Below, in pieces: positions 1-16,374 of a stretch of DNA of 64,000 nt. The notes beneath the pieces are model-generated. The model did not search any database, was not told where the DNA came from, and worked only from the letters and a program-made list of their open reading frames with translations. Source of the DNA: Anaerolineae bacterium (lineage in GTDB: Bacteria; Chloroflexota; Anaerolineae; JAAEKA01); the NCBI GenBank assembly GCA_049294015.1, contig JBAQCH010000024.1, forward strand, positions 62,226 to 126,225. Reading direction: 5' to 3'. The position numbers were made by a program, and so were the translations under genes. Position 1 is the first letter of the stretch. The number at the start of each line of letters is the position of its first letter.

Positions 1-2070
1 ATGGGCCTGATCTTCCTGCGCCACGCCTACAGCCGCTACCTGGGGGTCAGAGATGCGATCGTGGCCGGCCTGCCCAGCCGCGGCGGCGTGGCCCGCCCGC
101 TGACCAAGGAGGACTTCTCGCAGCGCAGCGCGATCTTCCTGCGGCCCGAGGCCCAGTTCGACCACCTGGTGGCGCTGACCGACCGCGACGACCGGGCCCG
201 GGCCATCATCGCCGCGATGGAGTCCATCGAGGCCGACTACGAGAACCTGCGCGGCGTGCTGCCCAAGAGCGAGTACCAGGAGCTGGACAACCAGGTGCTG
301 GGCCAACTGCTGCGCACCCTCAATCCCGACGAGCTGAAGCGGGTTTCCGGCGACGTCTTCGGCCGCATCTACGAGTACTTCCTGACCCAGTTTGCCGACC
401 AGAAGGCCCACGACGGCGGCGAGTTCTTCACCCCTGTCTCTCTGGTCTCGCTGATCGCCAACGTGCTGGCGCCGCAGGGCGGGCGAGTGCTGGACCCGGC
501 CTGCGGCAGCGGCGGCATGTTCGTGCAGAGCGCCCGCTTCGTGGAGCGCCAGCACGGCAACCCGGTGGAGAAGCTGACCTTCTACGGCCTGGAGAAGAAC
601 AGCACCACCATCCGCCTGGCCAAGATGAACCTGGCCGTGCATGGGCTGGAGGGGGACATCCAGCAGGCCATTACCTACTACGAGGACCCGCACGAGCTGC
701 TGGGCAAGGCCGATTTCGTCATGGCCAATCCCCCCTTCAACGTGGACGAGATCGACGCCGACAAGGTCAAGCGCGACCCGCGCCTGCCCTTTGGCCTGCC
801 GGGCGCCAACAAGAAGGGCAAGGTCTCCAACGGCAACTACATCTGGATCAGCTATTTCTACAGCTACCTGAACCAGCGGGGCCGGGCCGGCTTCGTCATG
901 TCCAGCCAGGCCTCCAGTGCGGGGCGGGACGAGGCCAGGGTGCGCCAGAAGCTGGTGGAGACGGGCGACGTGGACGTGATGATCGCGGTGCGCCCTAACT
1001 TCTTCTACACCCGCACCGTGCCCTGCGAGCTCTGGTTCCTCAACCGGGCCAAGTCGGCCGTGCCCTCATCCCCGGCCCTTCTCCCAGGGGGAGAAGGGAG
1101 TGTGGGCGGCGGCGCGCCGCTGAACCACAAGGGGTGCGTGCTGATGATCGACGCGCGCGCCATCTACCGCAAGGTGACGCGCAAGATCTACGACTTCAGC
1201 CCGGAGCAGGAGCAGAACCTGCTGGCGGTGGTCTGGCTGTACCGCGGGCAAAGCGATAAATACCTGGCGTTGGTGGCCAGCTACTGCCGGCGCACCCTGG
1301 ACGAGGCCGCGGCCTGTTTCCGCATGGCGGGCGAGAACGGCCAGCCGGTCGAGCCGCTGCCAGCCTTCGACGCCAGCCTGGCCGGCCTGCGGGCGGCGAT
1401 GCAACCCTTCCTGCACAGCCGAGCCGCTGATGGCCCGCAGGCCGGGCCGCAGCAGGAGCTGGCCGCCGCCGCGGCCCTCTTCCGCGCCGACGTGGACGCG
1501 TTCCGCGCCGCGCTGGCCGAACAGCAGGCGCTCTGGCAGGGCCAACAGACCAGCAACGGCGCGCTGCAAGCCGCCGTGGACAGGCTGGCGCCATTGGCCG
1601 AGATGAGCCGCGACCTGGTGCGGCAGAGTGACCTGCTGGTCAAGCTGGCCGCCCGGCTGATCGAAACGTGCGAGAAGGAATGCGAGGCCGGCGAGAGCGA
1701 CCTGTGGCCAAACCGGGAGATCAACCGGCTGCGCAGAGCCGCCGACGAGGCCCGTCAGGCCGCGGTGGAGCAACTCAAGCAGGTGCGCACCATCTGGCGG
1801 CAGGCCCACTGGCTGGTCGAGCGCTTCCCCGACGCCGAGCTGCGCGACGTGCCGGGGCTGGTCAAGCTGGTGGACGTGCAGGAGATCGCGGCCAACGACT
1901 GGAGCCTGACCCCCGGCCGCTACGTGGGCGTGGCCCCGGCCGAGGAGGACGAGGACTTCGACTTCGAGGAGGCGTTGCGCGAGATCCACGTGGAGCTGGA
2001 GGACCTGAACGCCGAGGCGGTGGAACTGGCGGCTACTATCCAGCGCAATTTCAAGGAGCTGGGAGTATGA
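1..2070 (+). CDS. hsdM: Type I restriction-modification DNA methyltransferase subunit HsdM; 5' end probably lies upstream of the window
   Basis: Translation contains HsdM N-domain-like LIFLRHAYSRYLG, AdoMet motif LDPACGSGGMF, catalytic NPPF (MANPPFNV) and a long helical C-terminal region. Conserved HsdM_N sequence sits at residue 1, so the true start is likely outside the window. Stop overlaps the next start as ATGA at 2067-2070. Confidence 0.9.
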   Translation: MGLIFLRHAYSRYLGVRDAIVAGLPSRGGVARPLTKEDFSQRSAIFLRPEAQFDHLVALTDRDDRARAIIAAMESIEADYENLRGVLPKSEYQELDNQVLGQLLRTLNPDELKRVSGDVFGRIYEYFLTQFADQKAHDGGEFFTPVSLVSLIANVLAPQGGRVLDPACGSGGMFVQSARFVERQHGNPVEKLTFYGLEKNSTTIRLAKMNLAVHGLEGDIQQAITYYEDPHELLGKADFVMANPPFNVDEIDADKVKRDPRLPFGLPGANKKGKVSNGNYIWISYFYSYLNQRGRAGFVMSSQASSAGRDEARVRQKLVETGDVDVMIAVRPNFFYTRTVPCELWFLNRAKSAVPSSPALLPGGEGSVGGGAPLNHKGCVLMIDARAIYRKVTRKIYDFSPEQEQNLLAVVWLYRGQSDKYLALVASYCRRTLDEAAACFRMAGENGQPVEPLPAFDASLAGLRAAMQPFLHSRAADGPQAGPQQELAAAAALFRADVDAFRAALAEQQALWQGQQTSNGALQAAVDRLAPLAEMSRDLVRQSDLLVKLAARLIETCEKECEAGESDLWPNREINRLRRAADEARQAAVEQLKQVRTIWRQAHWLVERFPDAELRDVPGLVKLVDVQEIAANDWSLTPGRYVGVAPAEEDEDFDFEEALREIHVELEDLNAEAVELAATIQRNFKELGV
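1063..1100 (+). repeat. ~38-bp palindromic element CCCTCATCCCCGGCCCTTCTCCC-AG-GGGGAGAAGGGAG inserted in-frame in hsdM (RPE-like)
   Basis: Perfect inverted repeat CCTTCTCCC/GGGAGAAGG. A near-identical copy (38/39) in opposite orientation lies inside hsdR at 13819-13857. Adds about 13 aa (SSPALLPGGEGSV) in-frame. Confidence 0.7.
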
Positions 2071-3092
2071 GCACCACAGAGTTATCCGTTCCAGATGATT
2101 ATGCAGTTCTGCTGGTCAAGGTCAAAGAACGGGTGCTTACTGCACAACTGCAGGCGTTCAGAGCGGTCAATACGGAGTTGATCGGCCTTTACTGGGATAT
2201 TGGGCGCATGATTGTGGAGAAGCAGGCTGGTGAGACTTGGGGCAAATCGGTCGTCCAACAACTGGCGGGGGATTTGCAGAATGAGTTCCCTGGCATCCGC
2301 GGTTTTTCCGCCTCCAATCTCTGGCGCATGAAGTCATTTTTTGAGACCTATGCAGCCTCGGAAAGACTCGCACAGCTTGTGCGAGAAATTGGCTGGGGCC
2401 ATAACTTGGTGATTCTAGCGCGCTGCAAAGATCCACTAGAGCGAGAATTCTACCTGCGCATGACCCGCAAGTTCGGCTGGTCGAGAAACGTGCTGGTCCA
2501 TCAGATTGAGAACCAGAGCTACGAGAAGACATTGCTTGGCCAGACCAACTTCGACAAAACGCTGTCGCCCGAACTGAGGGTGCAGGCAAGGCTAGCCGTC
2601 CGCGACGAGTACATCTTTGACTTTCTGGAACTGGACGAGCAGCACTCTGAGCGGGAGTTAGAACGAGCGCTGATTGGACGTATCGAGGAGTTTCTGCGCG
2701 CTTTGGGCGGAGTATTTGCTTTTGTGGGCAGCCAGTTCCGTCTGGAAGTTGACGATGAGGAGTTCTTCATTGATCTCCTGCTATACCATCGACGCCTGCG
2801 GGCGTTGGTGGCCATCGACCTCAAGATCGGCAAGTTCCAGCCGGAGTTCGTGGGCAAGATGCAGTTCTACTTAACGGCGCTGGACCGGCAGGTGCGCATG
2901 GAAGGCGAAAACCCCTCCATTGGTATCATTCTGTGCAAGGAAAAGAAGCGTACTATCGTCGAGTACGCCCTGTACGACGCCAGCAAGCCCATCGGCGTCG
3001 CCACCTATCGGGTTGTGCGCCAGTTGCCCAAAGACCTGCGCGGCCAGCTTCCCAGCCCGGAGGAGATCGCCAGACTCTTGGAGGAAGAGTGA
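2067..3092 (+). CDS. DUF1016/YhcG-family PD-(D/E)XK nuclease-like protein, inserted between hsdM and hsdS
   Basis: 341-aa product MSTTELSVPDDYAVLLVKVKERV...; N-terminal YhcG-like helical region and C-terminal nuclease-like core (EFFIDLLLYHRRLRALVAIDLKIGKF). ATG overlaps the hsdM stop (ATGA). Visibly lower GC than hsdM. Confidence 0.7.
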   Translation: MSTTELSVPDDYAVLLVKVKERVLTAQLQAFRAVNTELIGLYWDIGRMIVEKQAGETWGKSVVQQLAGDLQNEFPGIRGFSASNLWRMKSFFETYAASERLAQLVREIGWGHNLVILARCKDPLEREFYLRMTRKFGWSRNVLVHQIENQSYEKTLLGQTNFDKTLSPELRVQARLAVRDEYIFDFLELDEQHSERELERALIGRIEEFLRALGGVFAFVGSQFRLEVDDEEFFIDLLLYHRRLRALVAIDLKIGKFQPEFVGKMQFYLTALDRQVRMEGENPSIGIILCKEKKRTIVEYALYDASKPIGVATYRVVRQLPKDLRGQLPSPEEIARLLEEE

Positions 3093-3179
3093 TGGAGCAC
3101 CAAGGTGGAAGGGCAACAGGCACCAGACGGGCGCCTGGCGATGTTCCGGTATTCGGGCTTGGGCCTTCAGACATCTGCT

Positions 3180-3241
3180 GCACCGACGCGGTGGCGCTGG
3201 CCGCGACGATCAAGCGGAACTTCGAGGAGTTGGGGATATGA
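3180..3241 (+). pseudogene. Diverged duplicate of the hsdM 3' end (..DAVALAATIKRNFEELGI*), remnant at the cassette boundary
   Basis: Encodes AATIKRNFEELGI*, compared with the hsdM end AATIQRNFKELGV*; about 75% nt identity to 2017-2070. Its TGA overlaps the hsdS ATG (ATGA at 3238-3241). Confidence 0.6.
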
Positions 3242-4359
3242 GTTGGCAGCAGGCTCGACTCGCCGATATATCATCGATGAGAACGGGAAAGCTCGACTCA
3301 AATGCGGCCATTCCCGAGGGAGCGTATCCCTTTTTCACTTGCGCCCAGGAGACCTTGAGAATAGATGAACCTGCCTTTGACACAGAGGCGGTTCTACTGG
3401 GAGGAAACAACGCGGCAGGGATATTTCCCCTGAAGTACTACAACGGCCAGTTCAACGCTTACCAACGGACCTATGTGATCGAATCACTTGCACCAGATGT
3501 TCTGAATATCCGATATCTTTACTACGCTTTGCGTCCGGCTCTCGCACATTTTCAGTCTGCTTCTATCGGGGCCGCTACTCAGTATCTTACGAAGGGTATA
3601 CTGGACAATTTTCAAGTACCATTGCCCCCAGTTACTATTCAGAATCGCATCGTTATAATCCTCTCCGCCTACGACGACCTGATCGAGAACAACCGGCGGC
3701 GCATCCGCTTACTGGAGGAGGCGGCGCGGCTGCTCTACCGCGAGTGGTTCGTCCACCTGCGCTTCCCCGGTCACGAGCACGTGGCGGTGGTGGATGGCGT
3801 GCCAGAGGGGTGGGAGAGGAAGCGCCTAATCGAGGTTGCAGACATCAGGATGGGGCAAAGCCCGAAGTCCATCTACTACAATCAAGATGGTAACGGTCTT
3901 CCTTTTCATCAGGGAGTGAGCAACTTTGGCGGGAGATTCCCATCGCACGAAGTCTTCTGTACCATTTTAAGTCGGCTTGCAGAACCGGGCGACATTCTCT
4001 TTAGTGTACGGGCACCTGTTGGCAGGATCAACATTACACGCGACAAAATCGTGATTGGGCGCGGTTTGGCTGCAATTCGCTCCAACTGCGATCAGCAGAA
4101 TTTCCTTTTCTACGCATTGAAGAGCCATTTCTTCAAGGATGACATGATGGGCACTGGCGCGATTTTTGCCGCAATCACGAAGAATGACCTTCACGGCGTC
4201 CAACTGATGCATCCTCCGCTTCGACTCATCGAGATGTTTACGGAACATGCGCAACCGATTGATAGACAGATCGAGAATCTTCAACAGACAATCGATGGTC
4301 TTGTGAAAGCCCGCGACTTGCTCTTGCCGCGGTTGATGAATGGAGAGATCAGCGTATGA
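3238..4359 (+). CDS. hsdS: Type I RM specificity subunit HsdS (two low-GC target-recognition domains around a conserved central region)
   Basis: MSWQQARLADISS... start. Central conserved HsdS repeat region IVIILSAYDDLIENNRRRIRLLEEAARLLYREWFVHLRFPGHE and C-terminal conserved LVKARDLLLPRLMNGEISV. TRD segments are visibly AT-richer than the conserved core. Confidence 0.85.
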   Translation: MSWQQARLADISSMRTGKLDSNAAIPEGAYPFFTCAQETLRIDEPAFDTEAVLLGGNNAAGIFPLKYYNGQFNAYQRTYVIESLAPDVLNIRYLYYALRPALAHFQSASIGAATQYLTKGILDNFQVPLPPVTIQNRIVIILSAYDDLIENNRRRIRLLEEAARLLYREWFVHLRFPGHEHVAVVDGVPEGWERKRLIEVADIRMGQSPKSIYYNQDGNGLPFHQGVSNFGGRFPSHEVFCTILSRLAEPGDILFSVRAPVGRINITRDKIVIGRGLAAIRSNCDQQNFLFYALKSHFFKDDMMGTGAIFAAITKNDLHGVQLMHPPLRLIEMFTEHAQPIDRQIENLQQTIDGLVKARDLLLPRLMNGEISV

Positions 4360-7300
4360 ACTCTCCAAGAAGACAGCTCAGCAATTCGTTCTCAACTGGC
4401 GGTGGCGGCGGCCATTTCGAAGCACATCTACAGGCATCCTTTGTTGTTCTGATGCTTACCGGTGGACATGCACCTTGCCTGCCCTGTTGGCCAATCGTCA
4501 AGATCAAGCTGCAAGGAAGGATCGAAGGATTTGACACTGACGACCTGATCGTATTTGTTGAGAATGGCGATACTGGAGAAACACGGAAGCTCTTGGGACA
4601 GGTCAAGCATTCAGTTAGCATCACACAAAGCGACACCGTCTTTGGAGAAGTGATCCAGGCTGCTTGGAATGATTTCAACAATCCAACGGTCTTCACCCGC
4701 GGCAAGGATGTGATTGCGCTGATTACTGGTCCATTGAGCGCAACTGATACGCATAATGTGCAGTGGATATTGGGCCAAGCACGACACACAAGCGGAGTTG
4801 ACGAGTTCTACAGAAACGTCGAGCAAGCGAATTTTAGTCCGCCCAAGAGTGAGGAAAAGCTGGCAGCAATCCAGCATCACCTAAGGACCGCCAACAATGG
4901 CACCGCCGTTTCGCGAGAGGTTCTCTATGATTTCCTGAACCACTTCCATCTGTTAAGCTACGACTTAGGGACCGAGCATGGTGTTGTCTTGTCGTTGCTT
5001 CATTCACCTATCTCGCAGCGTAACCGAAATGCCCCGCAAATGCTTTGGTCGCGGGCTGTGGACATCGTACAAACCTGGAATCAAGATGCTGGAACGATCA
5101 CTCGGGAACGGCTTCCCGAGGATCTGGTGGACGCGTTTGAGCCTACCATCATAGCCCATATTCCCGAAGAGTTGACAACCAAAGATCTCGAAACTCAGAA
5201 AACTGACTGGGATCGGCATCAATACGCCTCCGATTTGGCTCTCGCAAATCTTGTTGGTGCATGGGATGAGAAAAGCGCCGCAGATATTGAAGCCTTGACC
5301 GGAGTAATTGGGATAGAGTATGCAACGTGGGTCAAGGAAGCACGAGAGATCTTACACCTTCCCGGTAGTCCTCTGTCACTCAAAAACGGCGAGTGGAAGG
5401 TTACTGAGCGGGCTGAACTGTGGTCTTCTCTGGGTTCGCGCGTTTTCGATCAACATCTTGACTCCTTCAAGGCTGCAGCTATTGCCGTGTTGAGGGAACG
5501 CGACCCGGCTTTTGATCTTTCACCTGAAGATCGCTTTGTGGCGAGTCTCCGAGGAAAAGCTCCCCATCACAGTTCAGTGCTCAGAATGGGCCTGGCTAAT
5601 GGATTAGCGATTCTGGGCAATCATGCGGGCGCATTAGCCAACTGTTCACGCGGAAAAGCAGAGGCCACCGTAATCTTGGCGATTCGGGAGATTTTCACTG
5701 ACGCTGATTGGAAGCTCTGGGCAAGCCTGAATAACCTTTTACCTGTCATGGCCGAAGCCGCACCCAATGAATTTCTCGATGCTGTGGAGAATGCTCTGCA
5801 GCAGTCACCTTGTCCCTTTGATGAACTCTTCGCTCAGGAAGAGAGTGGCATTATGGGGAGGAACTACCTGACCGGACTACTCTGGGCATTGGAAGGACTA
5901 GCATGGGATGAGCATTACCTTGTCAGAGTTTGTGTTATACTGGGGGAACTTGCCAGTCATGATCCTGGCGGCAACTGGACAAATCGCCCAATCAACTCTC
6001 TGATAACAATCCTTCTTCCATGGTATCCGCAGACTCTTGCACCAATCGAGAAGCGCCAAGTTGCAGTCAGGACGCTCTGCAAAGAGTCGCCAGGTATCGG
6101 TTGGAACTTGATCATTCAGTTGCTGCCTAATCAGCACCGGACATCCTCAGGTTCACATAGACCTTCATGGCGCAAGATAATTCCAGAAGACTGGGAAAGT
6201 GGTGTCTCAGGCCAAGAGTACTGGCAACAGGTGTTCTTCTATGCGGAGCTTGCTGTCTCGATGGCAGACTATGATGCTGCTAGACTCGCCGAACTCATCG
6301 AACACCTTGATAAGCTGCCAAGTTCAGCACTCGATCAACTTCTAGGGGTTCTGTCTTCGGACGCAATCTCAGGTCTTCCCGAAGAACAGCGGCTTCTGCT
6401 TTGGGATCAACTTACGAAGTGCATCATCAGACACAGGCGCTATTCCGAAGCAAAATGGGCATTTGACGACGATCGCATTTCTCAGATCGAGGCAGTGGCC
6501 AACGCCGTGGCACCAGAGAATCCTTTGATTCGATATCAGCCACTTTTTTCCGCTAATGACTTTGACCTCTACGAAGGACGAGATGATTGGCGGCAACAGC
6601 AAGAAAGACTGAACGAGCGGCGTCTGCATGCTATAGAGGAAATACTCAGAACCGGCGGAGTCGATGCAGTCATCGAACTTGCGAAATCGGTCATCTCCCC
6701 AATCCAGGTCGGATACATACTCGGAAGCATCGCTGATTCGATCATTGACTCTGAACTGCTTCCTAAGTATCTGGACTCGGAAACCAGTCAGATCATATCA
6801 TTCATCCGCGGCTATGTTTCAAGCCGGTTCACAGTGAATGGATGGCCTTGGGTGGATGGTCTGGATAGATCGACATGGAGCCTTGAACAGAATGCGATAT
6901 TCCTGAGTTGCTTGTCGTTCTCAAAGGACACTTGGGATCGAGCCGATCAATGGTTGGGTGAAGAACAAGGGGAGTATTGGTCGAGAACTAGTGCAGTTCC
7001 ATATGGAACTGACGAGGATTTGCATGCTGCCGTTGAGAAGTTGATCGACTACGGCAGACCTCAGGCTGCAATTCGCTGTTTGGACAGCATGCGTCATGAC
7101 AACCGACCGCTTGATGTCACGCAATGTATTCGAGTGCTACTAACCACCGTGTCTTCATCTGAACCTGTGGACTCGATGGCCAGGTATCATATTGTCGAGC
7201 TCATCAAATACCTTCAGAACAACTCTGAAGTGCCCTCGGATGATATCGCCAACATAGAATTGATATATCTTCCCCTACTGGATCATGACCAGGGAGTAGC

Positions 7301-7904
7301 GCCCAAACTGTTGGAGCTGCGTCTGGCCACCGATCCTTTATTCTTTTGTGAAGTACTGCAACTCATCTATCGTTCACGGAATGAGGGTGCACCTCGAACT
7401 GAGCCAACCGAGTTATCAAGGGCGATTGCGTCACACGGCTGGCAATTACTTCATCACTGGCAAACGGTGCCTGGAATACAAGAGGATGGTAGTTTCGATG
7501 AAGACCGATTTTCGGCTTGGCTTCGTCGCGTACAAGAGATTTGCACTGATTCGGGCCATATAGACGTTGCGCTCAGCACCATCGGCGAGGTTTTGATATA
7601 CTCTCCTGCCGATGCAACTGGTTTATGGATAAATCGTACGGTAGCGGAGGCGCTAAACGCGCGCGATGCAGAAGATATGCGAACTGGCTTTCGCATGGGA
7701 GTACTCAACTCTAGGGGTGTTCACTTGGTTGATCCCACTGGACAACCGGAACGAGAATTGGCGGAACAGTTCCGTCAGAAAGCAGACGATGTTGAAAACG
7801 TCGGTTTTCAGCGTTTCGCGGTCACGCTTAGGGATCTTGCCGAGAGATACGATCGCGAAGCCGAGCAAATAATCGCCGACCATCGTCAGGAAGCCGCTGA
7901 ATGA
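4356..7904 (+). CDS. Large uncharacterised protein (1182 aa), lower GC, mostly predicted helical; possible N-terminal PD-(D/E)XK-like nuclease motifs. Candidate novel defence component.
   Basis: Long uninterrupted ORF; start ATG overlaps the hsdS stop (ATGA). No Walker A, DEAD or HNH motif seen. N-terminal 90 aa contain HFEAHL ... FDTDDLIVFVENGDTGETRKLLGQVK, a possible E / D / (Q)xK arrangement. Remainder is Leu/Ala-rich with Trp/Asp periodicity, suggestive of alpha-solenoid repeats. Confidence 0.7.
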   Translation: MNSPRRQLSNSFSTGGGGGHFEAHLQASFVVLMLTGGHAPCLPCWPIVKIKLQGRIEGFDTDDLIVFVENGDTGETRKLLGQVKHSVSITQSDTVFGEVIQAAWNDFNNPTVFTRGKDVIALITGPLSATDTHNVQWILGQARHTSGVDEFYRNVEQANFSPPKSEEKLAAIQHHLRTANNGTAVSREVLYDFLNHFHLLSYDLGTEHGVVLSLLHSPISQRNRNAPQMLWSRAVDIVQTWNQDAGTITRERLPEDLVDAFEPTIIAHIPEELTTKDLETQKTDWDRHQYASDLALANLVGAWDEKSAADIEALTGVIGIEYATWVKEAREILHLPGSPLSLKNGEWKVTERAELWSSLGSRVFDQHLDSFKAAAIAVLRERDPAFDLSPEDRFVASLRGKAPHHSSVLRMGLANGLAILGNHAGALANCSRGKAEATVILAIREIFTDADWKLWASLNNLLPVMAEAAPNEFLDAVENALQQSPCPFDELFAQEESGIMGRNYLTGLLWALEGLAWDEHYLVRVCVILGELASHDPGGNWTNRPINSLITILLPWYPQTLAPIEKRQVAVRTLCKESPGIGWNLIIQLLPNQHRTSSGSHRPSWRKIIPEDWESGVSGQEYWQQVFFYAELAVSMADYDAARLAELIEHLDKLPSSALDQLLGVLSSDAISGLPEEQRLLLWDQLTKCIIRHRRYSEAKWAFDDDRISQIEAVANAVAPENPLIRYQPLFSANDFDLYEGRDDWRQQQERLNERRLHAIEEILRTGGVDAVIELAKSVISPIQVGYILGSIADSIIDSELLPKYLDSETSQIISFIRGYVSSRFTVNGWPWVDGLDRSTWSLEQNAIFLSCLSFSKDTWDRADQWLGEEQGEYWSRTSAVPYGTDEDLHAAVEKLIDYGRPQAAIRCLDSMRHDNRPLDVTQCIRVLLTTVSSSEPVDSMARYHIVELIKYLQNNSEVPSDDIANIELIYLPLLDHDQGVAPKLLELRLATDPLFFCEVLQLIYRSRNEGAPRTEPTELSRAIASHGWQLLHHWQTVPGIQEDGSFDEDRFSAWLRRVQEICTDSGHIDVALSTIGEVLIYSPADATGLWINRTVAEALNARDAEDMRTGFRMGVLNSRGVHLVDPTGQPERELAEQFRQKADDVENVGFQRFAVTLRDLAERYDREAEQIIADHRQEAAE

Positions 7905-8191
7905 CCCATAACTGCGACACCGAAGGCACCCTCGTCCAACAGACCACCACCGAGCATCTGCATCAGCACCTCGGATGGCGGGCGGTCTATGCCTACAACC
8001 GCGAGGACTTCGGAGCGGGCGGTCTGCTGGGGCGGGCATCGGACCAGGAGGTGGTACTGACGCGGCCGTTGCGTGCCAAGCTTGTCGAGCCGAACCATGA
8101 CTTGGCCGACGCGGCCTGCCAAGACCCTGCATTACGACTCAACAATGCCAAATACGGGCTTGAAACGATGAATGGAGAGATCAGCGCATGA
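7901..8191 (+). pseudogene. Remnant fusion of the hsdR 5' end (about 190 nt, ~80% identical to 12340-12530) and the hsdS 3' end (ETMNGEISA*); recombination scar between cargo 1 and cargo 2
   Basis: Encodes TEGTLVQQTTTEHLHQHLGWRAVYAYNREDFGAGGLLGRASDQEVVLTRPLRA (hsdR N-terminus is TEDTLVQQTTADYLEQQLGWRSVYAYNREDFGPDSLLGRASDREVVLTRPLRA) and ends with ..MNGEISA* (hsdS ends ..MNGEISV*). The 24-nt atgaatggagagatcagcg(t/c)atga is shared by 4336-4359 and 8167-8190. Confidence 0.6.
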
Positions 8192-10293
8192 AAGCCACCG
8201 AAGCCAACTTGCTGGATTTCCTTAAGAAGTCACCTCAGTTTGTAATCCCGATCTACCAACGCACGTATAGCTGGACCGAGCGCGAATGCCGCCAGCTTTG
8301 GGATGACATCCTGCGCACCGGCAGCAACGACGCCATCGCCGCCCATTTTGTCGGTTCTATCGTCTACATCGAGAAGGGTCTATATCAGGTCACAAGCCAG
8401 TCGCCGCTGTTGGTGATCGACGGCCAGCAACGACTGACGACCGTCATGTTGATCCTGGAAGTGCTGGCGCGCCACGTGGGAAACAGCGAGCCGGTCGATG
8501 GTTTCTCGGCCAGGAAACTCCGCAGCTACTACCTGCTTAACCCGCTGGAGGACGGTGAACGGCACTTCAAGCTGCTGCTTACGCAGACTGATAAGCAAAG
8601 TCTCCTGGCGATGGTGCAGCAGAAGCCTCAGCCCGTCGAGCCGTCGCTGCGCATCGCGGACAACTTCGCCTTCTTCGAAGAGCAGATCAAGGCCCTCGGG
8701 AAGAACCTGACACCGCTGTGCAAAGGGTTGGCAAAGCTCGTGATCGTCGACATCTCACTGAGCCGGGATCAGGACAACCCGCAGCTCATATTTGAGAGTA
8801 TGAACTCGACTGGCCGTGAGTTGAGCCAGGCCGACCTGATTCGCAATTTCATTTTGATGGGGCTGGAGCCAGCCCAACAGACGCAGCTTTACGAAGATCA
8901 CTGGCGGCCGATGGAGGTTGACTTCGGCCAGGAGGCCTACGGCACCCAGTTCGACAGCTTCATGCGTCATTACCTGACTTTGAAGACTGGCGATATCCCC
9001 AATGTCCGTGCCGTTTACGAGGCGTTCAAGTCTCACGCCCGCTCTCCAGAAGTTGTGGCAGCAGGCATCGAGGCCTTGGTTGAAGACATCCATCGCTATG
9101 CTGGCTACTATTGTGCGATGGCTTTGGACAAGGAATCCAGCAAGGAGTTGGCAGAAGCCTTCCGGGATCTGCGCGAGATGAAGGTCGATGTGGCGTATCC
9201 ATTCCTTCTGGAACTGTACCACGACTTTGCCGAGGGGGTGTTGCCTGAAGCCGATTTCCTCCAGGCCGTGCGGTTGGTGGAGGCTTACGTGTTCCGCCGG
9301 GCCGTGTGCGCAATTCCTACCAACTCTCTCAACAAGACCTTCGCCACGTTCAGACGCGCCCTCAAGAAAGAGCGCTACATTGAGAGTATCCAGGCGCATT
9401 TCCTCACATTGCCGTCCTATCGCCGTTTCCCCAACGATGAGGAGTTCAAGCGCGAGTTGTCCATTCGTGATCTCTACAATTTTCCCCGTCGTAGCTATTG
9501 GCTGCGACGCCTGGAGAATTTTGACCGGAAGGAGCGAGTGTCGGTGGGTGAATACACCATCGAACACATTCTTCCCCAGAACGAGAACCTTTCCGTCGCA
9601 TGGCGTCAGTCGCTCGGTCCAGAGTGGCGACGTATACAAGAAACCTGGCTGCACACACTGGGGAATCTCACATTGACGGGCTACAATGCCGAGTACAGCG
9701 ATCGACCGTTCCAGGAAAAACGAGATATGCCGGGCGGGTTCAAAGAGAGCCCACTGCGGCTCAATCAAGGACTTGGTGCACTGGACGCGTGGAACGAAGC
9801 TGCCATTCAGGCACGGGCGAAGCATCTTGCCGAAAAGGCCGTCAAGGTATGGGCAGCGCCCGCCCTATCGGACGCCGTGCTCGAGACCTACCAGTCAAAG
9901 GCCGAAAAGTCTGTTGGCTATAGCATCTCCGACCATCCACATGTGGCTGAAGGCGGGACCATGCAGGCCCTGTTTGAGCAACTCCGCAAGGAGATCCTGG
10001 CGCTGGACCCTTGCGTTTCCGAGGAGATTCTCAAGCTCTACATCGCCTACAAAGCTGAGACCAACTTCGTGGACATCGTGCCACAGAAGAGTCGCCTCCG
10101 CCTCTCTCTCAACATGCACTTTCACGAGTTGAACGACCCCAGGGAGATGGCCAAAGATGTGACCAATCTGGGCCGCTGGGGAAATGGCGACGTGGAGGTC
10201 GGCCTGAATCAACCGGAGGACATACCCTATGTCATGGGTTTGTTGCGTCAGGCCTTTGAGAAACAGATGGGCAACGGGATAGAGACGGAATGA
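8188..10293 (+). CDS. GmrSD-family fused DUF262 (ParB/Srx-like NTPase) plus DUF1524 (His-Me/HNH-like nuclease) protein; likely type IV modification-dependent restriction enzyme or BrxU/SspE-like effector
   Basis: N-terminal DUF262 hallmarks IPIYQRTYSWTERECRQLWDD and VIDGQQRLTT. C-terminal DUF1524-like region with EYTIEHILPQN. ATG overlaps the upstream remnant stop (ATGA). Confidence 0.85.
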   Translation: MKATEANLLDFLKKSPQFVIPIYQRTYSWTERECRQLWDDILRTGSNDAIAAHFVGSIVYIEKGLYQVTSQSPLLVIDGQQRLTTVMLILEVLARHVGNSEPVDGFSARKLRSYYLLNPLEDGERHFKLLLTQTDKQSLLAMVQQKPQPVEPSLRIADNFAFFEEQIKALGKNLTPLCKGLAKLVIVDISLSRDQDNPQLIFESMNSTGRELSQADLIRNFILMGLEPAQQTQLYEDHWRPMEVDFGQEAYGTQFDSFMRHYLTLKTGDIPNVRAVYEAFKSHARSPEVVAAGIEALVEDIHRYAGYYCAMALDKESSKELAEAFRDLREMKVDVAYPFLLELYHDFAEGVLPEADFLQAVRLVEAYVFRRAVCAIPTNSLNKTFATFRRALKKERYIESIQAHFLTLPSYRRFPNDEEFKRELSIRDLYNFPRRSYWLRRLENFDRKERVSVGEYTIEHILPQNENLSVAWRQSLGPEWRRIQETWLHTLGNLTLTGYNAEYSDRPFQEKRDMPGGFKESPLRLNQGLGALDAWNEAAIQARAKHLAEKAVKVWAAPALSDAVLETYQSKAEKSVGYSISDHPHVAEGGTMQALFEQLRKEILALDPCVSEEILKLYIAYKAETNFVDIVPQKSRLRLSLNMHFHELNDPREMAKDVTNLGRWGNGDVEVGLNQPEDIPYVMGLLRQAFEKQMGNGIETE

Positions 10294-10391
10294 GTTTCAC
10301 CGAAGACACCCTCGTCCAACAGACCACCGCCGACTACCTCGAACAGCAGCTCGGCTGGCGCTCGGTCTACGCCTGTAACGATGGAGAATAA
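10290..10391 (+). pseudogene. Near-identical duplicate of the hsdR 5' end (about 85 nt, ~97% identical to 12343-12428) ending in a degenerate junction (..VYACNDGE*)
   Basis: ttcaccgaagacaccctcgtccaacagaccaccgccgactacct.gaacagcagctcggctggcgctcggtctacgcct is shared with the hsdR start. ATG overlaps the GmrSD stop (ATGA at 10290-10293). Confidence 0.6.
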
Positions 10392-12033
10392 CAGCATGAG
10401 CATTGAAGGTCAGGATTGGGACCGCAAGTCGCTACGCTTCGTCGAAGGACGTTCCGCCAACTGGGACGAAGTCGCCAAAGACTGTGTGGCCTTTGCCAAT
10501 GCGCAGGGCGGCGGGTTGTTGATCGGTATCGAGGATGATGCATGGGCGCCGCCGGCGGGTCAGCGTATTGCGGACGAACTGATCGAACGTGTGCGCCGCC
10601 GGATCGGCGAGCTGACTGTGAATGTCACCTGCGCGGTGCAGCGAGAATTGTCCGCTGAAACCGGCGGCGAATTTCTGCGGGTGACTGTTTCTCGCTCTCA
10701 TGCCCCTGCATCTACCACCGATGGCCGCTACTACTTTCGCATTGCGGACGAGTCCAAACCCCTCGTGGGCGAACAAGTTCAACGCCTGCTCAACGAGCGC
10801 AACGCTCAGCCCTGGGAGACGCTGACGACTCTCAGCGTGCCGCGCGGCCAGACGGATCCGGCCAAGCTTGCGGCGTTCACTGCGGCTATTCGGGCATCCA
10901 GCCGGGTCAAGGCGTCGGTCAAGGAGAAGGGCGACGCGGAATTGCTGGATCACTACTACCTGGCCATCGATCGCCACCTGACCAACCTGGGCATTCTCTG
11001 TGTCGGACGCAGGCAGGATCGTGTTCAACTGGGCGCAGCGCCGGTGATTCAGTTCATCAAGTACGATCAGGATGATCGCAAGGTCAGCAAACTCTCCTGG
11101 GATGATCACTCTCTGACGCCGATGGAACTGGTGGAGGCAGTGTGGCGGGAGGTTCCGGATTTCCGCGAGACCTATGAACTGCCGGACGGCCTGTTTCGAC
11201 AATACCTGCCGGCCTATGACCAGCGGGTGGTACGGGAACTACTCGTCAACGCGTTGGTGCATCGACCATACACCCAACGGGGCGACATCTATCTGAATCT
11301 TTACCCGGATCGATTGCAGGTCGTCAATCCAGGATTACTACCTTTGGGTGTCACTCCTCAGACCATCCTGCACCAATCGGTGCGGCGAAACGATGAGATG
11401 GCGCGCGTGTTTCACGATCTGGGGCTGATGGAGCGTGAGGGCAGCGGGTATGATCTGCTTTACGAGGTCTTGACTTCGCAGGGACGAAAGCTGCCAGAAG
11501 TTCGTGAGGGAAGTGATCGGGTCGAAGTGGTCGTTTACCGGCGCGTAATCAAGCCCGTGGTGATTGATTTCCTGTCCAAGGCGGACGCTGCGTACCACCT
11601 AACGCAACGTGAACGAATAGCGCTGGGAATTCTGGTTCAATACGATGCTCTGACGATGCGAGAGCTAGCCAATCTCCTGGAGTTGCAGGACACATCGTCT
11701 GTGAATTTCTGGATCGAGAGGCTTCTGGAATGGAGAATTGTTAAGCAGGTTGGAAAAACAAGCGGGACCCGCTATTTTGTCGATCCCGATCTACTGGACA
11801 GGATGAACTTTCCAAGTAAGACAACCCTTGCTCGTATTGAGACTCATCGACTCCGTGCCCTGATTTTGGAGGATTTGCGAAGACATCCAGGTTCTTCCAC
11901 AAGTAAGATGCGTGAGCGCATTGGAGATGAGATCCCTATGCAACAAATTCGCAGGCAGCTCGCCATTCTGACAAAGGAAGGCCTAGTAGTGTTTCGAGGA
12001 GATAAACGCTGGCGTCGGTACTGGCCGACATGA
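10381..12033 (+). CDS. Schlafen-like AlbA_2 (divergent AAA) domain protein with HATPase_c_4-like middle region and C-terminal winged-helix; ATP-binding putative DNA-binding regulator or defence protein
   Basis: N-terminal AlbA_2 signature E..K.LRFVE...W.EVAKDCVAFANAQGGGLLIGIEDD. Middle RELLVNALVHRPY...GDIYLNLYPDRLQVVNPG matches the HATPase_c_4/RecG-C-like motif. C-terminal region is wHTH-like. 3' third is AT-richer. Confidence 0.75.
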   Translation: MENNSMSIEGQDWDRKSLRFVEGRSANWDEVAKDCVAFANAQGGGLLIGIEDDAWAPPAGQRIADELIERVRRRIGELTVNVTCAVQRELSAETGGEFLRVTVSRSHAPASTTDGRYYFRIADESKPLVGEQVQRLLNERNAQPWETLTTLSVPRGQTDPAKLAAFTAAIRASSRVKASVKEKGDAELLDHYYLAIDRHLTNLGILCVGRRQDRVQLGAAPVIQFIKYDQDDRKVSKLSWDDHSLTPMELVEAVWREVPDFRETYELPDGLFRQYLPAYDQRVVRELLVNALVHRPYTQRGDIYLNLYPDRLQVVNPGLLPLGVTPQTILHQSVRRNDEMARVFHDLGLMEREGSGYDLLYEVLTSQGRKLPEVREGSDRVEVVVYRRVIKPVVIDFLSKADAAYHLTQRERIALGILVQYDALTMRELANLLELQDTSSVNFWIERLLEWRIVKQVGKTSGTRYFVDPDLLDRMNFPSKTTLARIETHRLRALILEDLRRHPGSSTSKMRERIGDEIPMQQIRRQLAILTKEGLVVFRGDKRWRRYWPT

Positions 12034-12333
12034 TGTTCTATCGAACAAAAAGCACTGAATTCAATGCAAAAATGCTAACACTGTTACTTAAATGAGATTG
12101 TTGACTTCCGTAGCGCGATACATTGCTGATGCATTGCTTGTTTCGATTTCTATATATTGTATTCAATAAGTTATCTGATACTATATGTAGTGATTGTCAA
12201 AGACAAGTAAAGCCTAGAATCCCGATTCTCGCTGAAAATTCTATCTAACAAATCCTGTTGAGTTTTCGTGAATTGTCAATTAGCTGTTCGTTAGGCAGAC
12301 GTTTACAAGTGCGCAACATATGAGAAATGACCG
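12034..12333 (+). promoter_or_regulatory. 300-bp strongly AT-rich intergenic island directly upstream of hsdR; candidate promoter region (for example TTGTAT-16-TACTAT at 12157-12184) and probable 3' edge of the last inserted cassette
   Basis: AT-rich sequence (for example ctatatattgtattcaataagttatctgatactatatgtagtgattgtcaaag) contrasts with the GC-rich flanks. The promoter hexamers are a weak call because the AT richness produces many matches. Confidence 0.35.
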
Positions 12334-15300
12334 ATGAAGGCTGATCGATTCACCGAAGACACCCTCGTCCAACAGACCACCGCCGACTACCTGGAACAGC
12401 AGCTCGGCTGGCGCTCGGTCTACGCCTACAACCGCGAGGACTTCGGGCCGGACAGCCTGCTGGGCCGGGCGTCGGACCGGGAGGTGGTGCTGACGCGGCC
12501 GCTGCGCGCCGCGCTGGCCGCGCTCAACCCGGACCTGCCCGCCGCGGCCTACGACGACGCCGTGCGCCAGCTCGTCAGCGTGACAGCCACCCAGTCGCTG
12601 CTGGCAACGAACCGCGAGAAGTATACCCTGATCCGCGATGGCGTGCCGGTCAGTTTCCGCAACGCCAGGGGCGAGCTGGAGCGGCGCCGGCTGCGGGTGA
12701 TCGACTTCGCCGACCCGGCCGCCAACGACTTCCTCTGCGTGCGCGAGCTGTGGGTGCGGGGCGACCTCTACCGGCGGCGGGCCGACATCGTGGGCTTCGT
12801 CAACGGCCTGCCCCTGCTCTTCATGGAGCTGAAGAACGTCAGCCGGGACATCCGCGCCGCCTACGAACGCAACTTCAAGGACTACCTGGATACCGTGCCC
12901 CACCTGTTCCACCACAACGCGGTGGTGGTGCTGGCCAACGGCGTGGACGCCAAGCTCGGCTCGCTGACCAGTCGCTTCGAGCACTTCCACGAGTGGAAGC
13001 GGCTGGACGAGGACGAGCCGGGCGTGGTGGACATGGAAACCCTGCTCAAGGGCATCTGCCAGCCGGCCAACTTCCTGGACCTGGTGGAGAACTTCATCCT
13101 CTTCGACGACTCGGCCGGCGAGCCGAGGAAGATACTGGCCCGCAACCACCAGTTCCTGGGCGTCAACCGCGCCATCCGGGCTGTGGAGGAGCGCCGCCAG
13201 CGCCAGGGCAAGCTGGGCGTCTTCTGGCACACCCAAGGCGCGGGCAAGAGCTACTCCATGGTCTTCTTCACGCGCAAGGTGCATCGCAAGCTGGGCGGCA
13301 ACTTTACCTTCCTGGTGCTCACCGACCGGGAGGACCTGGACACGCAGATCTACAAAACCTTTGCCGGCTGCGGCGTGGTGGACAACGACCGCGATCCCTG
13401 CCGGGCGGCCGGCGGCCAGCATCTGAACCAACTGCTGACCCTGCACAAGGCGTACATCTTCTCGCTGATCCAGAAGTTCAACCGCGACGTGGAGCCGGAT
13501 CAGCCCTACAGCGAGCGGGAGGACATCATTGTCATCAGCGACGAGGCCCACCGCAGCCAGTACGGCAGCCTGGCGCTGAACCTGCGCAACGCGCTGCCCA
13601 ACGCCAGCTCGATCGGCTTCACCGGCACGCCCCTCTTCAAGAATGACGAGATCACCCGCCGCGTCTTCGGCGACTACGTTTCCACCTACGACTTCCAGCG
13701 CGCGGTGGCGGACAAGGCCACTGTGCCCCTTTACTACGACGCGCGCGGCGACAAGCTGGGCGTGGTTACCGACGACCTGAACGAGCGCATCGCCGAGAAG
13801 CTGGAGGAGATGGAAAACTCCCTTCTCCCCACGGGAGAAGGGCCGGGGATGAGGGGATTCGACATCGACGTCGCCCAGCGGCTGGAGCGCGAGCTGGAGC
13901 GGGACTATCACGTCATCACCGCCGGTAAGCGGCTGGATCAGATCGCCCAGGACTTCGTCGAGCACTATTCAACCTCTTGGGAGACCGGCAAGGCGATGCT
14001 GGTCTGCATCGACAAGGTGACCTGCGTGCGCATGCACAAGCTGGTCGGGTTCTACTGGGATCAGCGCATCAAGGCGCTGGAGCGAGCAGCGCCCGCGGCG
14101 ACCGACGAGCAGGACGAGCAATATCGCCGTCGCCAGATCGAATGGATGCGCGCGACCCGCATGGCTGTGGTGATCAGCGAGGAGCAGGGCGAGGTGGCTA
14201 GATTCCAGCAGTGGGGATTGGACATCACGCCCCATCGCCGCCTCCTCAAGGAGGGCATGGACCTGCCGGAGGCCATGCGCCAGCAGCCCCAGTACCGCGC
14301 CATGCAGCGCCTGGCCCTGGACGATGCCTTCAAGGCCGAGCAGCACCCCTTCCGCATCGCCATCGTCTGCGCCATGTGGCTGACCGGCTTCGACGTGCCC
14401 AGCCTGGCGACGCTCTACCTGGACAAGCCACTCAAGGCCCACACCCTGATGCAGGCCATCGCGCGCGCCAACCGGGTCAACGAGGGCAAGAACAACGGCC
14501 TCCTCGTGGACTACTGCGGCATCCTCAAGAACCTGCGCCAGGCCCTGGCCACCTTTGCCGGCGCAGGGGATGGCGGCCGCGACGGCGACGGCGGCGAGAT
14601 CGACCCGGCCCGCCCTGAGCAGGAGCTGCTGGCCGATCTGGCTGAGGCCGTCGCGCTGGTGCAGGCGTTTTTGGCCGAACGGGGAGCGTCGCTGGATGCC
14701 ATCATCAGCCAGGCAGGCTTCGCCCGCAACGCGGCCATCCTGGCGGCCAAGGAAGCGGCCAACCAGAACGACGCGACGCGCAAGCGCTTCGAGGTCATGT
14801 GCCGGGCGGTGTTCAGCAAGTTCAAGGCTTGTCTGACCCTGGCCGGCGTCAACGCCCACCGGCGCGACAAGAGCGCCATCGACATCGTCTACCAGAGCCT
14901 GCAAGCCGACCGCGCGCAGGCCGACATCAGCGCCATCACGCAGGAATTGCACGAGATCGTCGACCAGGCCATCGCGGTGTGGCGCAGCCCGACAGCCGCT
15001 GACCGGGCGCCGTACGACATCAGCCAGATCGATTTCGAGCGCCTGCGACGGGAGTTCGAACGCAGCCCCGCCCAACGCACCACTGTGCAGAATCTCAAGA
15101 CTGCCATCGAGCGCCGCCTCCAGCGCCTGCTGGCGCAGAACCCCCTGCGAGCTGACTTGCAGCGGCGCTACGAGGAGATCGTGGCCGACTACAACCGCGA
15201 GAAGGACCGCCTGACCATCGAGCAGACCTTTGAGGAATTGCTGCGCTTCGTGCAAGCCATGGACGAGGAGGAGACGCGCGCCGCACGCGAGGGATTGACC

Positions 15301-15627: not shown

Positions 15628-15630
15628 CAG

Positions 15631-15666
15631 CCGTCCCCAGCATGTGGTCAACGGGGCGTTTTTGGG
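15631..15666 (+). terminator. Weak candidate rho-independent terminator after hsdR (short GC stem plus TTTTT)
   Basis: ccgtcccc-agcatgtggtcaac-ggggcg followed by ttttt right after the TAA stop; the stem is short and imperfect. Confidence 0.3.
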
Positions 15667-15700
15667 TTCTCGCACACAAAGACCGAGAATATACCCTCGC

Positions 15701-16324: not shown

Positions 16325-16374
16325 GATGTCGTCATTATAGCGCCACAGCCCAAAAAACTCAACCCAGCGCCCGT

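Follow-up and report, generated by a model that had tools for sequence, protein, structure and literature searches.

The window analyzed here, a stretch of 64,000 nucleotides (nt) from a metagenome-assembled genome (MAG) of an Anaerolineae bacterium, opens with a chromosomal Type I restriction-modification (R-M) operon, recognized as such by the domain content of its HsdM, HsdS, and HsdR proteins, which runs as a single string of genes on the + strand from 1 to 15627. Between its hsdM and hsdR lie four cargo genes, all on the same strand, which encode a DUF1016 nuclease (PDC-S02 in PADLOC), a protein of 1182 amino acids (aa), a GmrSD-family enzyme, and an AlbA_2 protein, and the joints between these genes and their neighbors carry short second copies of the ends of hsdM, hsdS, and hsdR. 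This pattern is well supported and is a general property of the operon family rather than a peculiarity of the window. The explanation favored here, to which a probability of about 0.6 is assigned, is that modules from different hsd loci have been joined to one another and that the leftovers of their former neighbors persist as relay open reading frames (ORFs), which would keep initiation signals and translational coupling in place.

Self-BLASTN of positions 1-17000 of the window recovers three families of repeats, all far exceeding chance and, for the hsd sequences, every one of them direct; no inverted repeats were found at the joints of the window. The beginning of hsdR is present twice more upstream of the intact gene, at 7918-8125 (against 12351-12558; 81.7% over 208 nt, E 5e-54) and at 10296-10374 (against 12349-12427; 98.7% over 79 nt, E 7e-34), the second copy extending to an 84-nt direct repeat, 10296-10379 and 12349-12432, with 96% identity and three mismatches. 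The end of hsdM at 2012-2071 recurs at 3183-3242 (78% over 60 nt, E 3e-7), a copy that is also recognized by the nhmmer profile of the family (E 1e-9), and the end of hsdS at 4335-4360 recurs at 8167-8192 (96% over 26 nt, E 4e-5). One further candidate, 10380-10395 as a remnant of the hsdS end, has just ATGGAGA and ATGA as matches and was left uncertain. A first-pass annotation of this DNA had already proposed the three repeat families, the descent of the short fragments from hsd gene ends, six ATGA overlaps between neighboring genes (2067, 3238, 4356, 7901, 8188, and 10290), and the order and identities of the genes; self-BLASTN recovers all three families at the places proposed, BLASTN and nhmmer identify the fragments as true homologues of the gene ends, the overlaps can be read directly in the sequence, and Pfam and PADLOC agree with the gene assignments.

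A feature additional to the scars described by that annotation is that the remnants lie within in-frame mini-ORFs that bridge both neighboring genes. Stop and start codons overlap as ATGA or TGATG at 2067 (where the DUF1016 gene begins on the hsdM stop), 3090, 3238, 4356, 7901, 8188, and 10290. The ATG of a 49-codon ORF overlaps the stop of the DUF1016 gene in a TGATG, and its own stop overlaps the start of hsdS in an ATGA. A 96-codon ORF has ATGA overlaps at both ends and reads in one frame through an hsdR start (7901-8125, 82% identical to 12334-12558), a stretch of 41 nt, and an hsdS end (8167-8190, one mismatch), closing with the C-terminus MNGEISA*. The third, of 33 codons, ends 5 nt ahead of the AlbA_2 start at 10396, and its last 12 nt include GGAGA at Shine-Dalgarno distance from that start. 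From hsdM to the AlbA_2 gene the chain of overlapping or abutting frames is unbroken, the sole break in the operon being an AT-rich spacer 5' of hsdR (Table 1). The first five codons of the intact hsdR (MKADR) come from the insert side, and the homology with the remnants begins at 12349.

Table 1. Features of the R-M operon in the window, followed by two bridging ORFs of related loci given in the coordinates of those loci
Feature	Position	Strand	Content or matches
hsdM	1..2070	+	Pfam N6_Mtase (PF02384, E 3e-71) and HsdM_N; PADLOC MTase_I, E 3e-230
Cargo 1, DUF1016_N and YhcG PDDEXK nuclease	2067..3092	+	Pfam; PADLOC candidate PDC-S02
Mini-ORF, 49 codons	3092..3241	+	Last 60 nt (3182-3241) are an hsdM 3'-end remnant
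hsdS, two target-recognition domains	3238..4359	+	Pfam Methylase_S (PF01420), two stretches; PADLOC Specificity_I, full length
Cargo 2, 1182-aa protein	4356..7904	+	No Pfam, PADLOC, or NCBIfam match
Chimeric mini-ORF, 96 codons	7901..8191	+	hsdR 5' remnant, 41 nt, hsdS 3' remnant
Cargo 3, GmrSD-family Type IV restriction enzyme	8188..10293	+	Pfam GmrSD_N, GmrSD_C, C-terminal DUF5655; PADLOC Orf5/HEC-06/mREase_IV
Mini-ORF, 33 codons	10290..10391	+	hsdR 5' remnant
Cargo 4, AlbA_2/Schlafen, HATPase_c_4, and helix-turn-helix protein	10396..12033	+	Pfam; other in-frame start at 10381
AT-rich spacer, 300 nt, 36% GC	12034..12333	+	Interrupts the chain of overlapping genes ahead of hsdR
hsdR, intact	12334..15627	+	Pfam HSDR_N, SWI2_SNF2, ResIII, T1R_D3-like, T1RH-like_C; NCBIfam TIGR00348
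Bridging ORF, locus L025	4728..4829		MSLGNIHVELEDLNTEAVQLAAMIKKNFEELGI; own HsdM end of L025, DIHVELEDLNAEAVHLAATIKRNFEELGV
Bridging ORF, locus L020	7752..7937		

Two independent Logan assemblies (L081 and L082, from SRR28060807 and SRR28060529) have the identical arrangement from hsdM to GmrSD, including two of the remnants, and in both a gene finder predicts genes at the 49-aa and 96-aa ORFs. These contigs stop within the 84-nt hsdR repeat, and the AlbA_2 gene with its spacer forms separate 2.0-kb contigs (L169 and L170) that are bounded by the repeat, as is usual for short-read graphs at a repeat; the AlbA_2 gene called on them is the 545-aa form starting at 10396. The short-read contigs are compatible with a mixed population, with and without the module of AlbA_2 and spacer.

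For comparison, 160 related loci were fetched by means of HsdR (80 from genomes and 80 from metagenomes, with 59-84% protein identity), with hosts among the Chloroflexota, Desulfobacterota, Planctomycetota, Cyanobacteria, and methanogenic archaea. No record of the exact HsdR protein of the window was found, and the window allele is therefore compared at the level of the family, not of the species. In the 106 loci whose fragment holds all three hsd genes, cargo is found between hsdS and hsdR in 95 and between hsdM and hsdS in 24, and both sites are empty in 9. The nine doubly empty alleles have the form hsdM-ATGA-hsdS-ATGA-hsdR, reading ...MNGE..V* and then MS.YTEDTLVQQ, and in keeping ATGA at both junctions they uphold the earlier proposal that the genes of the ancestral hsdMSR operon were translationally coupled. 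Alleles with an empty site and alleles with alternative cargo are both present among the relatives.

These loci were then searched by nhmmer with three DNA profiles built from the loci themselves, which covered the final 150 nt of hsdM, the final 120 nt of hsdS, and the initial 300 nt of hsdR, and about 29 extra copies of gene ends came to light in 23 non-redundant loci (a recount that leaves aside contig-edge and duplicate cases). The trail of scars had been thought unusual; within the family it is not, at least one remnant being carried by 19 of 103 complete non-redundant loci. The outer boundaries of the remnants are regular: those of hsdM reach the stop codon (profile position 150) and lie directly 5' of hsdS, those of hsdS reach the stop or end a few bases short of it (positions 115-120) and lie directly 5' of a cargo gene, and those of hsdR begin at positions 3-17, directly 3' of a cargo gene, with the exception of L146 (position 31). 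The inner breakpoints vary, at profile positions 19-107 for hsdM and 45-225 for hsdR, and no remnant longer than 225 nt was seen, whole-protein tblastn included. The occurrence of remnants follows that of cargo. Those of hsdM are present in 10 of 22 loci with the hsdM/hsdS slot occupied and in 0 of 81 with the slot empty, and loci with remnants between hsdS and hsdR have longer cargo (medians of 5142 vs 2249 nt; p=2e-4 by the Mann-Whitney test). Other former neighbors are also represented, as in L027 and L143, where the hsdR start is fused to about 70 nt that correspond to the 3' end of cargo gene c29, a gene that is intact in L141 and there overlaps c1, and in L028, where the frame that ends in an hsdS remnant includes an AlbA_2-like N-terminal motif. 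The keeping of boundaries is therefore not specific to hsd genes, and any former neighbor may leave one. A remnant is also found, as a weak match, in the complete genome of an isolate, Syntrophus buswellii (L021).

The cargo itself is modular. Clustering of the 449 ORFs of the cargo regions yields a small set of recurrent modules, found singly or stacked, which include c4+c5, c7+c15, c8, c16+c18+c17, c12+c13, c19+c20, and c3+c1. Stacked loci with remnants at their joints are L020, L025, L027, L028, L071, L143, and L146; the order is, for example, c7+c15, hsdR start, and c8 in L020; c7+c15, hsdS end, and c4+c5 in L071; c16+c18+c17, hsdR start, and c9 in L025; c3+c1, hsdR start, hsdS end, and c19+c20+c12+c13 in L028; and an hsdR start followed by c1 in both L143 and L027. 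The nature of the remnant corresponds to the place that a module occupies when it stands alone. Single, the c16-c17 module abuts hsdR (L009), and in the stack of L025 an hsdR start remnant comes after it; single, c4+c5 stands behind hsdS (L007), and in the stacks of L071 and L118 an hsdS end remnant comes before it. The c12+c13 module of L010 and the 117 nt at the start of its hsdR can be aligned without interruption, at 90%, to c12+c13 and the remnant in L143, and L027 and L143 share one unit of remnant and c1 behind differing upstream modules. That cargo was stacked iteratively, as had been suggested from the window, thus finds support in modules that stand alone in some loci and elsewhere form stacks with remnants between them.

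Three loci show variants of these arrangements. In L156 (7629-7913) a full hsdS is missing and its place is taken by a 141-nt remnant of the hsdM 3' end, a short hsdS-like start (MSWESK...), and the last 113 nt of hsdS, so that hsdS appears to have collapsed to its two ends. L110 has two tandem remnants of the hsdM end ahead of hsdS (4328-4371 and 4456-4502), which suggests two successive events at one joint. In L068 (6952-8650, Methanoculleus sediminis S3Fa) a complete DUF1016 gene splits an older one to which it is 41% identical and of which the 5' part (residues 4-130) and the 3' part (residues 294-340) are left, a nested replacement that has left both ends.

The frames of the remnants are preserved to an extent not expected by chance. 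In the initial list of 35 remnants, which included a few contig-edge and duplicate cases, 33 were free of stops in the native frame, and 14 of the 22 joints with defined neighbors are spanned by a single ORF that overlaps or abuts both of them, where interior shuffling combined with randomization of the frame gives an expectation of 0.96 (clean examples are given in Table 1). The interval between the DUF1016 gene and hsdS illustrates the range: in L031 and L062 it holds no remnant and the DUF1016 stop overlaps the hsdS start, about 28-30 codons of hsdM are kept in L108 and L150, about 20 in L023, and 18 in the window, and in the Methanoculleus loci L009 and L056 the remnant is barely recognizable and an ATGA-to-ATGA ORF (25 and 26 codons, a length difference of exactly 3 nt) nevertheless persists. 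An ORF that is still there after so much divergence speaks for selection on the frame, not for recency. Tight junctions are common in the family as a whole, with ATGA at 105 of 112 hsdM stops and at 98 of 123 hsdS stops, whatever follows, and a 4-nt overlap in 255 of 520 adjacent gene pairs. The part of the 3' remnants that is conserved is a purine-rich stretch and the start codon of the next gene. A 4-nt overlap of stop and start promotes translational coupling, and untranslated stretches inside operons invite Rho-dependent polarity; by bridging their neighbors the mini-ORFs would pass ribosomes on and avoid polarity-causing gaps, and they may thus act as translation relays.

Homologous exchange appears from sequence comparison to be active in the family. 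L122 and L125/L161 are 99.2% identical in hsdM-hsdS and 99.5% in hsdR and hold unrelated cargo, identity returning at about codon 5 of hsdR; L010 and L098 differ by a swap of the target-recognition domain (TRD); and the unit of remnant and c1 is shared as described. In addition, hsdS has a central segment of about 155-170 nt in which loci that share 75-92% in hsdM and hsdR are 96-99% identical, a contrast that fits frequent recombination or conversion at the conserved center between the two target-recognition domains; the segment lies about 480-650 nt past the hsdM stop and is seen, for example, in L006, L010, L021, L025, L094, L098, L100, L108, and L115.

In the window, traces of exchange are preserved in base composition. 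Both hsdM and hsdR are host-like (65-72% GC; G+C at third codon positions, GC3, 0.91-0.93, with 0.84-0.90 in host genes), and from about 2026 to 12348 GC is below their level, at 36-61%. The transition falls inside hsdM, where a GC3 of 0.93-1.0 gives way to one of 0.64 after nt 2025. In the last 19 codons (2011-2067), 6 of 19 end in A or T (AT3), compared with 11 of 170 in the body of the gene (p=0.003), a proportion like that of the DUF1016 gene (104 of 341), and the hsdM remnant (1 of 19) resembles the body of hsdM and differs from DUF1016 (p=0.018). From this mosaic it follows that the functional end of hsdM would have come with the cargo and that the remnant would be the displaced end of the resident gene, as predicted for a crossover within the hsdM-end homology of about 59 nt, whether a circle was integrated or two crossovers took place, the right-hand one in a remnant already present in the donor; the composition supports such a crossover. 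The earlier proposal that hsd gene ends serve as homology arms is therefore supported for the DUF1016 joint, and is not supported as a description of a general arm system, since the ends are not extra-conserved, breakpoints vary, and one recurrent composite remnant contains the end of a non-hsd gene. Sliding-window identity over 149 hsdR and 95 hsdM sequences gave 72-73% nucleotide identity for hsdR 1-120 and 63-80% elsewhere, and the idea that the gene ends are specially conserved arms was rejected, there being no excess of identity at the ends.

At least three joints have probably been formed in the window, namely those between the DUF1016 gene and hsdS (78% identity over 60 nt), between the 1182-aa gene and GmrSD, and between GmrSD and AlbA_2. 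The last would be the youngest, because its repeats are 96-99% identical; with three mismatches in 84 nt, the hsdR start of the donor must also have differed little from that of the resident gene, so that the donor allele may have come from the same population. The joint between the 1182-aa gene and GmrSD, with 82% identity, a GC3 of 0.80, differences of 11/10/17 at the three codon positions, and 20 codon changes that are nonsynonymous as against 11 that are synonymous, is probably older or from a more distant partner. A mosaic within this hsdR remnant (scar 1) was considered as a mark of the crossover point and was rejected, identity being patchy with no clear switch.

In the model favored here, the recombination type at each joint and the order of events, both of which we infer, would be as follows. 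The hsdM-hsdS-hsdR family has been widely transferred, and its two internal junctions would serve as slots for promoterless, co-directional cargo of the defense type. Segments from different hsd loci would be joined, each retaining the first or last few dozen bases of its former neighbor, be it the start of hsdR, the end of hsdS or hsdM, or the end of another cargo gene. The first formation of a joint would be a non-homologous (illegitimate) join, because the start of hsdR offers no homology to the end of hsdS or to a cargo gene, and later spread and re-assortment would proceed by homologous recombination in hsdM, hsdS, hsdR, and the remnants themselves. Remnants of 3' ends would persist because the next gene has its ribosome-binding site and its overlapping start in them, and fused remnants would persist as in-frame ORFs that begin on the upstream stop and end on the downstream start.

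It has to be noted that several observations weigh against this model. The closest HsdR relatives have only 84% protein identity in genomes and 78% in metagenomes, and among the 160 loci no near-identical pair was found that differs by one remnant-flanked module. Many stacked loci have no detectable remnant, 8 of the 22 joints are unbridged, and about one-third of adjacent gene pairs have gaps of more than 20 nt, so that coupling cannot be obligatory; translation of the mini-ORFs and selection for coupling are themselves suggested by sequence statistics. For the shortness of the remnants the model must invoke deletion or selection against long fragments. The direction of displacement is inconsistent: the hsdM remnant of the window looks resident, and in most other loci the functional ends are nearer to those of relatives than the remnants are, which could reflect decay or foreign origin. 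A general assignment of remnants as resident or imported was rejected, divergence fitting decay and foreign origin alike.

One alternative, which is the proposal of the first-pass annotation in its strong form, has cargo travel as recombinase-free cassettes together with an hsd gene end, integrated in a RecA-dependent manner through a single crossover of a circle or a double crossover with a pre-existing remnant as arm, the resulting direct repeats permitting later pop-out. It would give rise to AlbA_2 and the spacer lying between 84-nt direct repeats of 96-99% identity, to the DUF1016 gene within a duplication of about 59 nt of which the left copy is cargo-like and the right host-like in GC3, and to the unit of remnant and c1 behind differing modules in L027 and L143. 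Homologous exchange clearly occurs often in the family, and the AlbA_2 module as a separate Logan contig bounded by the repeat is compatible with an excised form, though no proof of it. Homologous recombination alone, however, cannot make a first joint such as that of hsdR+225 to hsdS-24, and this alternative also has to contend with hsdM and hsdR ends that are conserved no better than the rest (72-73% vs 63-80%), with breakpoints that differ from locus to locus, with composite remnants that contain ends of non-hsd genes, and with the lack of any observed circular junction or empty/occupied pair of alleles; it is held to be possible but doubtful. A further-reaching form, in which the remnants are working parts, serving both as portable RecA arms across phyla and as relay ORFs, with AlbA_2 and its spacer reversibly excised to switch the coupling of hsdR, is a speculative extension and rather unlikely.

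Remnants could instead be what is left of two or three complete head-to-tail Type I operons with one cargo each, from which the redundant hsdR-hsdM-hsdS bodies were deleted. The composite of hsdR start and hsdS end (7901-8191 in the window, and L028) is just what a deletion from early hsdR to late hsdS would leave, and the hsdS of L156, cut to two ends beside an hsdM remnant, and the internally deleted hsdR of L062 point the same way; yet tandem full operons and long fragments of hsdR or hsdM are absent among the 160 loci, extra steps are needed to bring an hsdR start onto the start of a cargo gene (L020 and the GmrSD/AlbA_2 joint of the window, scar 2) or onto its 3' end (L027 and L143), and the GC3 mosaic at the hsdM end is unaccounted for, which makes this history improbable. 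That the mini-ORFs encode functional micro-proteins, for instance N-terminal peptides of HsdR or C-terminal peptides of HsdM with a modulating effect on the assembly of the restriction complex, is suggested by their staying open and being called by gene finders and by the C-terminal motif AA.IKKNFEELG retained in hsdM remnants. The peptides, however, are poorly conserved, range from 25 to 96 codons with unrelated filler, have no Pfam or PADLOC match, and in scar 1 show more nonsynonymous than synonymous changes (20 vs 11), and the nucleotides that are conserved fall on the Shine-Dalgarno and start region of the next gene, so that a function of this kind is very unlikely. Least credible of all is an artefact of chimeric MAG joins: the window does come from a MAG and short-read contigs do break at the 84-nt repeat, but the region from hsdM to GmrSD with its two remnants is the same in two independent assemblies, remnants diverged to 78-82% cannot arise by mis-joining of reads, and the architecture recurs in many unrelated assemblies, with a weak case in the isolate genome of S. 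buswellii.

The model of joined hsd modules has partial counterparts among known systems. A Type I-embedded GmrSD, that is, a Type IV enzyme inside a Type I R-M operon beside hsdR, was reportedly described by Machnicka et al. in 2015; the GmrSD of the window differs in being one of several stacked modules and in lying between remnants of the hsdS end and the hsdR start. The nearest analogy in logic may be the orphan toxin-immunity arrays 3' of rhs and cdiA, in which modules accumulate and displaced ones keep a piece of the conserved gene that is usable as homology. Those arrays, however, displace C-terminal toxin domains of one gene, whereas the family described here would stack whole genes, with remnants that form coupled mini-ORFs. 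In outcome the operons are integron-like, with promoterless cassettes stacked one way behind a common promoter; unlike in integrons, no integrase and no attC-like inverted repeats were found at the joints, and their positions are variable. Phase-variable Type I systems with truncated hsdS copies likewise hold partial hsd genes in the locus as recombination partners, but they use inverted repeats and usually a site-specific recombinase to shuffle target-recognition domains, whereas the window has direct repeats that are derived from hsdM, hsdS, and hsdR gene ends and have foreign genes between them. Among the ORFs scanned from 1 to 27 kb none was found to have an integrase or recombinase domain, inverted-repeat sites are lacking, and the joints are variable, so that the locus is neither integron-like nor shufflon-like in mechanism. 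The embedding of defense genes in Type I R-M, BREX, DISARM, and Hma systems is documented as "guilt-by-embedding" (Payne et al. 2024, bioRxiv 10.1101/2024.01.29.577857), with 96.7% of embedded genes co-oriented and GmrSD-like proteins as frequent cargo; that study leaves the mechanism and significance of embedding open, and its text is without recombination, scars, remnants, or translational coupling. The window family agrees with it in having co-oriented cargo between system genes, with GmrSD-like and DUF1016 (PADLOC PDC-S02) proteins among the embedded families, and differs from its catalogue in joints that carry gene-end remnants kept as bridging mini-ORFs. In the RptR-RM-DarTG island of enteropathogenic Escherichia coli (EPEC), the site between hsdS and hsdR, occupied by DarTG2 or by a pair of RNA-binding protein and ATPase, has been suggested to be a recombination hotspot (PMC12255303). 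Differing cargo between the hsdS and hsdR of related Type I systems is thus common to both, but the EPEC island, compared here by the description in that paper, belongs to another Type I lineage and has no duplicated gene-end trail reported. When the literature was searched for hsdR or hsdM in truncated or remnant form, just unrelated staphylococcal and other cases came up; embedding is thus known, and the architecture of remnants and relay ORFs was not found in the literature searched.

Embedding is now used to discover immune genes, and the route by which such genes enter and are expressed had been left open. The remnants provide a base-level record of the joining and show that operons of distant phyla, archaea included, stack ready-made modules and exchange them in new combinations. 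They also suggest a rule for the expression of a growing operon, which is to keep the start and stop signals of a neighbor as a tiny bridging frame. If this is confirmed, remnants could be used to delimit cargo modules automatically, to date acquisitions, and to design insertion points for synthetic cargo.

As for the cargo genes of the window, the GmrSD and DUF1016 proteins are positive for defense families, the AlbA_2 protein has weak PADLOC matches, and the 1182-aa protein has none. Homologues of three of them are found in hsd loci at comparable places: DUF1016 in the hsdM/hsdS slot also in L009, L023, L031, L056, L062, L116, and L150, GmrSD immediately 5' of hsdR in L067 (70% identity) and L074 (56%), and AlbA_2 immediately 3' of hsdS in L070 (59%). 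The 1182-aa protein corresponds to an NCBI hypothetical protein of an Anaerolineae MAG and has 1778 homologues of uniform length (about 1180 aa) with 60-67% identity, a family with no Pfam, PADLOC, or NCBIfam assignment. Residues from about 290 to 1182 are predicted to form an alpha-solenoid in an AlphaFold model that covers this part, for which Foldseek gave nothing beyond generic alpha-solenoid similarity as a clue to function, and the N-terminal 280 or so residues are conserved, with an invariant HFE..H..QA motif. Homologues elsewhere (L163-L167) lie in a genomic island, in a polysaccharide gene cluster, and beside a DNA methyltransferase gene, not in hsd loci; the possibility that the gene travels with hsd remnants outside such loci was rejected, as nhmmer found none around it in these other contexts. 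The gene is accordingly a candidate stand-alone defense gene. In the polysaccharide cluster (L165/L166) a 30-codon ORF (9912-10004) precedes the homologue with 4-nt overlaps to both neighbors, and a 196-aa protein with an AlbA_2-like N-terminus (13540-14130) follows it, again with a 4-nt overlap; bridging mini-ORFs may therefore extend beyond hsd operons.

Of the remaining parts of the locus, the AT-rich spacer has no homologue among the 160 related loci, and no sigma-70-like promoter, terminator, Rfam match, or unusual structure was found in it. The 5' end of hsdM is truncated by the start of the window by about 36 codons, the PADLOC MTase_I match beginning at profile position 37. HsdR is distantly related to that of EcoR124I (E 1e-33), and the operon is followed on its 3' side by housekeeping genes (NUDIX, ADP-forming acetyl-CoA synthetase, NifU, cysteine desulfurase, and SufBD). 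A 39-nt hairpin resembling a repetitive extragenic palindrome (CCCTTCTCCC-loop-GGGAGAAGGG with flanks) is present at 1063-1101 (+) and, inverted, at 13817-13855, the two copies being 95% identical and the only ones in the 64-kb window. They lie in frame and in opposite orientations within hsdM and hsdR, where they account for 21 and 13 residues, respectively, that are extra compared with homologues, and their presence in both genes suggests that the hsdM and hsdR backbone has long been resident in this genome.

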